A stretch of DNA of 45,604 bases, from the NCBI RefSeq assembly GCF_003334335.1, contig NZ_QOWQ01000036.1. One strand, written 5' to 3'. Source of the stretch: Escherichia coli. Lineage in GTDB: Bacteria; Pseudomonadota; Gammaproteobacteria; Enterobacterales; Enterobacteriaceae. Made by a program: the position numbers and the translations under genes. The notes beneath the pieces are model-generated. The model did no database searches. It was not told the DNA's origin and saw only the letters and a list, made by a program, of their open reading frames with translations. Position 1 is the stretch's first letter, and each line of letters starts with the position of its first letter. This document shows positions 28,017-45,604 of this stretch, one piece after another.

Positions 28017-28345
28017 TATGCCTAAACACAAAAAATTGTAAAAATAAAATCCATTAACAGACCTATATAGATATTTAAAAAGAATAGAACAGCTCAAATT
28101 ATCAGCAACCCAATACTTTCAATTAAAAACTTCATGGTAGTCGCATTTATAACCCTATGAAAATGACGTCTATCTATACCCCCCTATATTTTATTCATCA
28201 TACAACAAATTCATGATACCAATACTTTAGTTTTGCATTTAATAAAACTAACAATATTTTTAAGCAAAACTAAAAACTAGCAATAATCAAATACGATATT
28301 CTGGCGTAGCTATACCCCTATTCTATATCCTTAAAGGACTCTGTT

Positions 28346-42140: not shown

Positions 42141-42287
42141 TACTGCTCCTGAGCGGTTTACAGGAGTAAGTGTAGACGTTGAGAAATGATATTTGTGAAG
42201 TTAATCCTGTTGTAGCAGGACAAATTTACGAAAGCCTGCTCCCCGCAAGGACTGACGTCAGGTAGTTTCTAACCATAGCTGCCCTTT

Positions 42288-43049
42288 CTATTCAAACGTG
42301 AAATCAATAAGTTCATCAGGGACATCGCAAACAATATGAAGACGGATTTCTTCTCTGCCGTGACTCTTTTCACTCATTGCGTAACTGTCATGCTCTGGAT
42401 TATTTAATTCTTTCAGCGGAAATTTTTCCTCAAAGGCTTTATTTAGCCGCCCCTGGTTTCCTTTTACCGCGAATAAATAATCACCTCCCTGTTTTTGTAT
42501 CTTCTCTGCAATATCTTTCTGGCAACCCATCGCATCAGTTGTGATGATTTTTCCTTTAATATCCAGCATGTTAAGAAGTTCAGGGATAGCTGTGATCTCA
42601 TTGGATTTCTTATCCGTCTTGATCTGCCCGATGACCAGACTGTGCATTGTTGAGAACGCACTAATGACATGAATCGCTCCCCTGCGGCGACTCTTGTCAT
42701 AAGAGTGCCGGAGCGTTTTTCCATCAATTGCAATGACGTCTTTATCATTTGATGAATGGCAATCACGCATCCAGTTAATAAAGCACTCGTGAAATTTTGC
42801 AGGACTGATACAGGATACAACTCTGGCAATAGTATCGTGAACAGGAATACCATTTTCAAAATCACCATATTGCTTCAAGAAATCGAGATGTGTTTCCCCG
42901 AAATCCTCTATATCTTCCCAACTTTCTGCACCAGAAATAACGGCAAAAATAGTCAATAGTAGGATGCCTGACAATTTATGCTCTACTTTCCAGGCTTATC
43001 TGTAATCGGGAATAATAGAAATATGTTCCATCAATTTTTTAAGTTCCAT
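42288..43049 (-). pseudogene. ybfD: H-repeat-associated transposase remnant, copy 1 (ybfD-like), in-frame TAA at codon 18 and 3'-truncated
   Basis: [17 protein letters not shown]-stop(42996-42998)[10 protein letters not shown]... then 228 codons; ends ...[12 protein letters not shown] where full-length ORF-H continues W-K-G-L. Confidence 0.75.
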
Positions 43050-43174
43050 TTGTTCACCTTATTTATGTAAGGAGTATTTGATCATGTATAAGCTATGAAA
43101 AACAGCTTTAGGTAATAAGGAATATCTCAATTTTTAAACATAAAATGCGAATTATTTAGTACAAAAAAGTAGCG

Positions 43175-43429
43175 TTACGTGATCTTTCCCTGGGATACAA
43201 CTCTGGCAATGGTATCGTGAACAGGAATACCATTTTCAAAATCACCATATTGCTTCAAAAAATCGAGATGTGTTTCCCCGAAATCCTCTATATCTTCCCA
43301 ACCTTCTGCACCAGAAATAACGGCACAAATAGTCAACAGTAGAATATCTGACAATTTATGCACCACTTTCCAGGCTTGTCTGTAATCGGGTGTAATAGAA
43401 ATATGTTCCATCAATTTTTTAAGTTCCAT
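43175..43429 (-). pseudogene. H-repeat transposase N-terminal fragment, copy 2 (84 codons)
   Basis: [22 protein letters not shown]...IARVVS then out-of-family QGKIT-stop created by the repeat junction. Confidence 0.8.
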
Positions 43430-43554
43430 TTGTTCACCTTATTTATGTAAGGAGTATTTGATCATGTATAAGCTATGAAAAACAGCTTTAGGTAATAAGG
43501 AATATCTCAATTTTTAAACATAAAATGCGAATTATTTAGTACAAAAAAGTAGCG

Positions 43555-43809
43555 TTACGTGATCTTTCCCTGGGATACAACTCTGGCAATGGTATCGTGA
43601 ACAGGAATACCATTTTCAAAATCACCATATTGCTTCAAAAAATCGAGATGTGTTTCCCCAAAATCCTCTATATCTTCCCAACCTTCTGCACCAGAAATAA
43701 CGGCACAAATAGTCAACAGTAGAATATCCGATAATTTATGTTCCACTTTCCAGGTTTGTCTGTAATCGGGGATAATAGAAATATGTTCCATCAATTTTTT
43801 AAGTTCCAT
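43555..43809 (-). pseudogene. H-repeat transposase N-terminal fragment, copy 3 (84 codons)
   Basis: Near-identical to copy 2 (I13, T19, E23 variants); same junction-derived C-terminus. Confidence 0.8.
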
Positions 43810-43951
43810 TTTGTTCTCCTTAATTAGGTAAGGAGTATTTGATCATGTATAAGCAATAAAAAACAGCTTCAGGTAATAAGGAATATCTCAATTTTTAAAC
43901 ATAAAATGCGAATTATTTAGTGCAAAAAGTGAACTTTTGATGATCTTTCCC

Positions 43952-44315
43952 TGGCCGTTGACTCGATTGCCGTAGCTCGAACGCAAGCACTCTTATCATT
44001 CAATGCCATATTGTTCAAAATATTAAAAACATTATCTTCGCATTTTTTGCAAATTTATATTTGCCCGAGTATAAATGCTCCGATATCTCTACGGATATAA
44101 TTTTTGTCAGTGCAGAATTCAATTGCCAATCTAACAGCGTCTTGCCCCCCTCTTAACTGTAATACTCTGGCAGATGAAATCCTTTTCAAGGAATTGCGAT
44201 CATCAAGTAAGCGAAATAATTCATCATCATTTAGTTTCTTACATTTATTATATAAACCATACTCTTTACTTGCCTTTCTTTTCTGGTATGTATTTGACAT
44301 TGCAGGAACCTCCAT
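43952..44315 (-). pseudogene. yibA-like HEAT-repeat (PBS-lyase type) gene remnant
   Basis: MSNTYQKRKASKEYGLYN...AFILGQI then TAA (44055-44057); homology continues in frame (ICKKCEDNVFNILNNMALNDKSACVRATAIESTA) to ~43953 where the H-rpt terminus begins. Confidence 0.7.
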
Positions 44316-44509
44316 AAAGGCTATCTTTTTCTATCGTTTGACTGTCTGGAGTCCTCCACCTACTCTGCCATCAGCGCACACGATGTTTGATTATCCTTAC
44401 ATACTTATTTTCCGTGGCCAAAATTCAGAATTCTCCCATCATTTTTGCCTATTTCTATAATAAAAACCCCACCAGCAATTTGGTCTGAGTGAATGGTACC
44501 TTCAACAAC

Positions 44510-44752
44510 TCAACTTGTTGTTAACTCAGTGATTTCGTATGGTTTTTCTTCTTCTGCGGCATCCTGTCCATAACGATTCTTAACATATATCTCAGCTAAT
44601 TCCAATGCTATAGCTTTATTTTTAACCAAATTTCTAACGGTATATTTACCTTCACTTTCATACTTGCGCATTATTTTAATATTATTATTACACTGCGCCC
44701 ATGTGTTGTATGTAAAAACAAACAAAGATACAATGACACAGTTCCTAAACAA
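44510..44752 (-). CDS. Small secreted protein, candidate Rhs immunity protein
   Basis: 80-aa ORF 6 nt downstream of the Rhs tip stop; N-terminal signal-peptide-like segment (MFRNCVIVSLFVFTYNTWA); AT-rich like the tip. Confidence 0.5.
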   Translation of the reverse strand: MFRNCVIVSLFVFTYNTWAQCNNNIKIMRKYESEGKYTVRNLVKNKAIALELAEIYVKNRYGQDAAEEEKPYEITELTTS

Positions 44753-44758
44753 TATTTT

Positions 44759-45604
44759 TTACATATTACCATGAACTCTGCAGACATTAGGTAATCCTTT
44801 TCTGTTTGTTATTTCCTTCCCGTGGTTATCTATTGCTTTAAAATTACCACTGGGCGTACCTAAATAAAATGACTTGATATTGTTATCTTTACTTTTAACT
44901 ATTTTCTCATCTTTACCTGAAAATATTTCGTCCCAATATTCTCCATGACTATCTGCACCATGAGTATGATAAGCTGATACTTTCTCAGTACCATTAGGGC
45001 AAGGGCTATTGAATGGATATGATCCTTTTCTTTCTCCTCGGTTAGGTGCTGTTGAGAAATATCTGCCACTATTATCCTTACATATTAAACCAGCGAACTC
45101 TTTATCTTCGCAAATAGATTGGCTATTTATTTTATTTAAGGCGCCATATGCGGTGCTATCTATAGAATCAAATTTATCTGGACCTATCATAGCGGATAGT
45201 GTGCCGCAAAGACCATTAGTACATGCCCCCGATTTTGCATCCTCCCACATAGATAAACCCAGGGGGTCGATGTCTGATATCGGATTCAATTGATATCCAT
45301 ACAGGTTCCATCCCCCCTTCAGTCCAATCGGATCCTGAGTGATATATCGCCCCTGCAGCGGGTCATAATAGCGGTGGCGGTTGTAATACAGGCCGGACTC
45401 CTCATCATACTGCTGCCCCGGCAGCCGGATAAGCTGCTGCAGCTGATGCGGGTTCTCTTCATTCAGCAGGTTGCCCCATTCATCATATTCTGCGCACCAC
45501 GCTGTTGCCCCTTCCGTGCTGATGAGCGCCAGCGGCAGGCCGCGATGGTCGCAGTGGTACAGGTGGATTTTTCGCGCCGGCGTGTACACCGGGTCCATCT
45601 GGTT
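44759..45604 (-). CDS. Rhs protein C-terminal part: end of conserved core plus ~164-aa variable tip (putative toxin); 5' end outside window
   Basis: Core-end signature ...[39 protein letters not shown]; abrupt GC-rich to AT-rich switch at ~45254; Cys/His-rich tip; reading frame runs to the window edge. Confidence 0.85.

Follow-up and report, generated by a model that had tools for sequence, protein, structure and literature searches.

A probable remnant of the immunity gene yibA (yrhC), ending at an H-repeat terminus, in an Escherichia coli strain closely related to K-12

The locus analysed here contains a feature that is already known, namely the annotated pseudogene yrhC (b4552) of Escherichia coli K-12. 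In MG1655, yrhC is located between yhhH and yhhI, downstream of rhsB. The automatic annotation (PGAP) of DH5alpha, MT102 and Ec1120 labels it as a HEAT repeat domain-containing protein with an internal stop, incomplete and missing the C-terminus, and in the literature yrhC receives only a passing mention as a pseudogene. The intact relative is yibA (b3594), which encodes a 280-aa HEAT-repeat protein of determined structure (PDB 1OYZ) and lies directly 3' of rhsA. Hill and colleagues, cited in PMC3150448, reportedly found that the growth inhibition exerted by the RhsA C-terminus is neutralised by full-length YibA, in agreement with the tie between YibA-type proteins and Rhs immunity that was drawn in a preliminary description of this DNA. 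In Rhs and CDI loci, the newer tip/immunity pairs are followed downstream by older ones, which frequently adjoin insertion sequences (PMC3150448, PMC2935791), and Rhs tips are exchanged and displaced through recombination (PMC2935791).

The window is the whole stretch of DNA that was analysed, 45,604 nucleotides of contig NZ_QOWQ01000036.1 (E. coli assembly GCF_003334335.1), and its relevant features are listed in Table 1. On the minus strand, an open reading frame of 86 codons occupies 44055-44315, and these coordinates include the TAA stop codon at 44055-44057. According to the preliminary description, made from the letters alone, this frame is the N-terminus of YibA. A BLASTP alignment bears this out, as the fragment is aligned to the 280-aa YibA with 112 identities in 117 residues, without gaps and with an E value of 2e-82, and the sequence of MG1655 YibA is exactly the one given there. 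A stop codon in place of a lysine was also claimed. The replacement is real, since codon 82 is AAA (Lys) in yibA and TAA in the window through a single substitution at 44057; the TAA is already contained in 44055-44315. The homology was further said to continue in frame after the stop as far as the H-repeat, and this is the case. The 34 further in-frame codons are translated as ICKKCEDNVFNILNNMALNDKSACVRATAIESTA, the match to YibA carries on through them, and beyond them the reading changes character. The segment 44300-43954 on the minus strand thus corresponds to YibA residues 1-116. The homology to yibA DNA stops at 43954, one base ahead of the left inverted repeat of the H-repeat (43953), and codon 116 is completed by the first base of the H-repeat, which takes its third position.

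The open reading frame itself stands as described, whereas its first codon is probably not the gene start. The ATG at 44315 reads GTG in yibA and abuts the GGAGG Shine-Dalgarno sequence. The translation start is likely to be the ATG at 44300, as annotated for both yibA and yrhC, and the homology reaches further upstream, to 44352. Translation from the ATG at 44300 gives MSNTYQKRKASKEYGLYNKCKKLNDDELFRLLDDRNSLKRISSARVLQLRGGQDAVRLAIEFCTDKNYIRRDIGAFILGQI (MSNTYQKRK...FILGQI), followed by the stop. The fragment is matched by the NCBIfam model NF007244 (YibA / PRK09687) at profile positions 1-81 with an E value of 2.8e-31. The score of the 81-aa product is 108.9 bits, below the curated cutoff of 275, so that the product does not qualify as a whole protein of the family. 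The significant Pfam HEAT_2 matches of full YibA are located at residues 139-236, all within the part that is absent from the stub. No protective activity would be expected of the stub.

Table 1. Positions of the features around the yibA fragment in the window
Feature	Position	Strand	Basis or remark
Rhs gene or orphan, 3' end: end of RHS core and DUF4329 toxin tip, RhsB type	44759..45604	-	Cut by the window end
yhhH copy, Imm-NTF2-2 immunity gene of the DUF4329 tip, inactivated	44405..44787	-	Profile match, comparison to MG1655
Last 32 nt of the RhsA-type toxin CDS, including the TAG stop (44321-44323)	44321..44352	-	Alignment to MT102 and MG1655 rhsA-yibA
20-nt rhsA-yibA intergenic spacer with GGAGG Shine-Dalgarno sequence	44301..44320	-	Alignment
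yrhC open reading frame, yibA codons 1-81 and premature TAA (44055-44057)	44055..44300	-	Alignment, BLASTP; equals MG1655 yrhC b4552
In-frame yibA homology past the stop, codons 83-116	43954..44054	-	Translation, BLASTP, DNA alignment, tblastn/blastn
H-rpt/ISEc1 left end, nt 1-381	43573..43953	-	100% identical to K-12 H-rptB; encodes 84-aa N-terminal transposase stub
Second 381-nt H-rpt left-end unit, ybfQ-like, rhsC-locus type	43193..43572	-	93.7% identical to H-rptB
Third H-rpt copy, ybfD-like, nt 1-913 joined to nt 1225-1291	42216..43192	-	Element alignment

The fragment was compared with three relatives. Against MG1655 yrhC, no differences are found over 44352-43573, a stretch that covers the toxin remnant, the TAA-bearing stub, the junction and nt 1-381 of the H-repeat. 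The surroundings differ: the window copy adjoins ybgA-phr (the rhsC locus), whereas the MG1655 copy lies between nikR-rhsB and yhhJ; the window contains a 381-nt H-repeat stub and two partial copies in place of the complete yhhI element of MG1655; and the upstream yhhH of the window is dead. Against yibA b3594, residues 1-116 are 96% identical, and the same 32-nt toxin 3' end and spacer are present upstream. The gene b3594 is intact and stands directly behind its toxin gene; in the fragment, residues 117-280 are missing, Lys82 is replaced by a stop codon, and the residue changes Q19K, H35R and S64T are present. The third relative, a yhhH-linked yibA (WP_033805578.1), shares with the fragment the left breakpoint, the residues Lys19, Arg35 and Thr64, the upstream yhhH and the B-type Rhs tip. 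This allele, unlike the fragment, is intact, with Lys82 and 280 aa, and is found at the rhsA site without the H-repeat, followed by yibJ/yibG-type orphans.

The homology to rhsA-yibA does not begin at the start of yibA. It begins at 44352 of the window with the final 32 nt of the RhsA-type gene (named polymorphic toxin type 34 by PGAP), which comprise its last 29 coding bases and the TAG. As the toxin 3' end and the spacer are both retained, the fragment is the remnant of a toxin/immunity module and not of an immunity gene alone. The stub is not directly 3' of its cognate toxin, since the adjoining complete tip is of the DUF4329 type, which pairs with yhhH. The yibA fragment does not belong to the adjacent Rhs tip as its immunity gene but is left over from a replaced RhsA-type module. 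In this it resembles the displaced Rhs and CDI modules (Poole et al., 2011; Jackson et al., 2009), in which a leftover pair lies downstream of the current pair and beside an insertion sequence. A classical displaced tip, however, keeps a core piece and the whole tip, whereas here the toxin is almost deleted (32 nt) and the immunity gene was kept and then truncated. From these comparisons, the yrhC stub is very probably a dead remnant of yibA, the immunity gene of the RhsA-type toxin/immunity module.

The immunity gene of the current tip is not intact in the window either. Of the Rhs gene, 846 nt are inside the window, and the equivalent copy of MT102 is an N-terminally truncated orphan. Compared with MG1655, yhhH has two lesions, a frameshift through a 1-nt deletion in an A-run (A7 to A6) near 44761 and a W93-to-stop change (TGG to TGA) at 44510. 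The former is shared with the DH5alpha assembly. The latter allele is present in two of 5426 complete genomes (Ec1120 and BKQ37E); of these, Ec1120 was examined and carries it at its native rhsB locus. A third difference, an Asp-to-Gly change from K-12 RhsB at 45144, lies at the start of the DUF4329 domain, and this allele is found in 99 complete genomes. These three are the only differences between the window copy and the K-12 rhsB module, and all of them alter a gene product. Sequencing error was considered as their source and rejected, because two are natural alleles (99 and 2 genomes) and the third matches DH5alpha. The module is decayed throughout, which supports the preliminary description of it as decaying.

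The window over 42341-1 is 99.98% identical to 739-781 kb of MG1655, which contains ybgA, phr and the tol-pal genes and extends to the Lys/Val tRNA cluster; past ybgA-phr the window runs into dtpD. Seven substitutions and one 2-nt insertion distinguish the two sequences in this region. Single-base differences are located at 28225, 24131, 18272, 18236, 15181 and 1721, and the seventh, 42312, is within the H-repeat block. The first base of the window falls within the lysT-valT-lysW tRNA cluster, and the 2-nt insertion relative to MG1655 is at 298-299. According to these scattered differences, the source strain is very closely related to K-12 but distinct from MG1655.

The segment 45604-43573 is an rhsB-type module (DUF4329 tip, yhhH and yrhC), and it is sited by ybgA-phr, at the rhsC locus. 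This placement in a near-K-12 background is the only unusual feature of the stub. A comparable join to ybgA-phr was detected in only one of 5426 complete genomes, that of MT102 (CP034953.2), and this rarity raises the question of a mis-join in the assembly through the multi-copy H-repeat, in which case the true site of the module would be the native rhsB locus. The join does pass through the repeated 381-nt H-repeat units, and the number of tandem units is unlike that in MT102. However, MT102 is an independent assembly and shows the same neighbourhood plus a native rhsB locus. The first unit of the window is 100% of rhsB type over 381 nt, and the unit behind it has a complete left end of rhsC type, whereas a mis-join within shared homology would be expected to yield a hybrid unit. 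Furthermore, the Asp-to-Gly and W93-stop alleles of the module are natural variants and not K-12's own. A mis-join is thus unlikely, although it keeps some weight. As the native rhsB locus is retained in MT102, the transfer was duplicative there. A reciprocal crossover between rhsB and rhsC is an unlikely route, since the loci share orientation in K-12 and MT102 keeps both copies. The rhsC locus of MT102 also holds an RhsA-tip/yibA orphan.

At 43953 the window reads CAGGGAAAGATCATC, and the left terminal inverted repeat of the H-repeat, CAGGGAAAGATCA, starts at this base, so that the stub ends at the terminus of the insertion sequence to the base. The MG1655 element at the same junction, H-rpt/ISEc1 of the ISAs1 family, is 1291 bp long; it begins with CAGGGAAAGATCA and has an imperfect right inverted repeat, whose reverse complement is CAGGGCAAGATTA. 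In the window, the H-repeat behind the stub is incomplete and only partial copies are present. Three tandem left ends lie on the minus strand over 42216-43953, each joined at nt 381 of the preceding copy, and the two 381-nt units encode an 84-aa transposase stub each. The third copy has an internal deletion of nt 914-1224 and keeps the right inverted repeat, and the ybgA start is about 75 nt past it. Mismatches to K-12 in this block are clustered, eight at 43527-43492 and eight at 42468-42312. Their clustering suggests conversion patches between copies.

The junction of the stub and the H-repeat is present in 1816 of 5426 complete E. coli genomes (about 33%), as counted with a 201-nt probe over the stop codon, the junction and the end of the insertion sequence that had to match over at least 80% of its length. 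In 20 of 21 copies sampled from these genomes, the sequence is 100% identical to the window, the stop codon included. In one isolate, LR882052.1 (1296-1700 of the locus examined), this junction is combined with an intact Lys82 and with Gln19, His35 and Ser64, which are residues of the rhsA type. This variant may represent the state before the nonsense mutation, or it may have arisen by later gene conversion from yibA. Near-perfect conservation across a third of E. coli genomes might be a sign of function, and as GGAGG and the ATG are intact, we considered that the stub might be a functional small gene of 81 residues and one or two HEAT repeats with an immunity, decoy or regulatory role. The identity, however, extends equally through the non-coding junction and the end of the insertion sequence. 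Because these are as well conserved as the stub, the conservation is attributed to common descent. In addition, residues 139-236 with the HEAT_2 matches are missing, the score is far under the family cutoff, and both the MG1655 curators and PGAP treat the locus as a pseudogene. A promoter scan of 43800-44900 gave fewer promoter-like sites than in shuffled sequence, and no relevant terminator was detected in the same interval. A functional stub is therefore highly improbable.

An exact-match scan for the junction over 100,044 species-representative genomes gave a single match, a 1561-bp contig (QFQM01000622.1) in a metagenome-assembled genome named 'Flavobacterium psychrophilum'. This contig is 100% identical to the MG1655 rhsB-yhhH-yrhC region. 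It was rejected as an occurrence in Flavobacterium psychrophilum and assigned to contamination of that genome with E. coli K-12. Apart from the contaminant contig, the scan gave no evidence of the junction outside E. coli.

Strains lacking the H-repeat were also compared, as proposed in the preliminary description. The arrangement in which yhhH is followed by full-length yibA without the H-repeat was found in 1185 of 5426 complete genomes (about 22%), using the yhhH-to-stub segment of the window joined to the 3' part of yibA as a query and requiring at least 80% of the query length to be matched. Among the matches listed (n = 30), all cover the joined query fully, 29 of them in a single piece, with up to 99.8% identity. 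The order in these genomes is B-type Rhs tip, yhhH, the 32-nt toxin remnant and full-length yibA. In CP062910.1, the rhsA site consists of yibF, an Rhs gene with a B-type tip, yhhH, intact yibA and yibJ/yibG-type orphans. The left breakpoint is the same as in the window (44352): homology to the K-12 rhsA locus starts at this base and continues for 4 kb. Over 44352-43954, only two bases of the window differ from the CP062910.1 allele, the nonsense change at 44057 and one synonymous site, whereas 11 bases differ from the rhsA-linked yibA of K-12.

The preliminary description regarded the gene as hit twice, by a point mutation and by insertion of the element, and proposed a search for the C-terminal two-thirds across the H-repeat or elsewhere. 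The point mutation and the H-repeat terminus are both present, whereas a simple insertion is not supported. Searches of the 45.6-kb window with full-length yibA (tblastn and blastn) detected no yibA sequence beyond residues 1-117, and none was found in the K-12 rhsB locus (6 kb past the complete H-rptB), the rhsC locus or MT102. Nor was a target-site duplication observed, as the sequences outside the left and right ends of the element have no direct repeat. These two results indicate that the 3' two-thirds of yibA was lost through a deletion associated with the insertion sequence or through recombination between elements. A clean insertion of the H-repeat into an intact yibA-like gene, with the C-terminal two-thirds preserved on the far side or elsewhere, is hardly credible even though the break falls at the terminal inverted repeat to the base, since the missing part and the direct repeat are lacking and the yibJ/yibG-type sequence that follows yibA in the untruncated arrangement is absent from the window.

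The 32-nt toxin remnant, the untruncated parent in 1185 genomes and the lack of a simple insertion are new here. From these comparisons a history of the locus can be proposed. A cassette of the DUF4329 toxin tip and yhhH would have replaced nearly all of the RhsA-type tip, leaving yibA intact downstream, and this first-step state would be the one still found in about 22% of complete E. coli genomes. In another lineage, a deletion or recombination associated with the H-repeat would have removed yibA codons 117-280, and the stub would next have acquired the nonsense codon, TAA at codon 82. We infer this order of truncation and nonsense mutation, as the LR882052.1 variant may be a product of gene conversion and not an intermediate. 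In the strain analysed here, the block consisting of the Rhs tip, yhhH, the stub and the H-repeat left end would then have been copied into the rhsC locus, most likely by recombination between Rhs-core and H-repeat homologies.

The block is found at three sites: at rhsA without the H-repeat (about 22%), at rhsB in the truncated form (about 33%), and at rhsC in this strain and MT102. We give roughly even weight to the reading that the block is a portable cassette copied between rhs loci by recombination through homology to the Rhs core on its left side and to the H-repeat on its right. If this reading is true, the window shows a natural but rare case of a module duplicated from one locus to another, after which the redundant copy decayed. 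The stub alone matters little, as it is a catalogued pseudogene in a third of complete E. coli genomes. The presence of the whole block at a third rhs locus lends slight support to the idea that tips and immunity genes move between loci within a chromosome, and the H-repeat is one possible homology arm for such movement. The locus would also provide a worked example of Rhs evolution, in which an old toxin was overwritten by a new tip with its immunity gene. The immunity gene of the old toxin would at first have survived, until a mobile element and a point mutation destroyed it.

Further insertion sequences are present around yrhC in other genomes. In Ec1120 (CP126598.1; 7795-8492 of the locus examined), IS1 is inserted in the H-repeat just downstream of yrhC, and several genomes carry IS1A inside the yrhC region. 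The yrhC locus keeps gaining insertion sequences.
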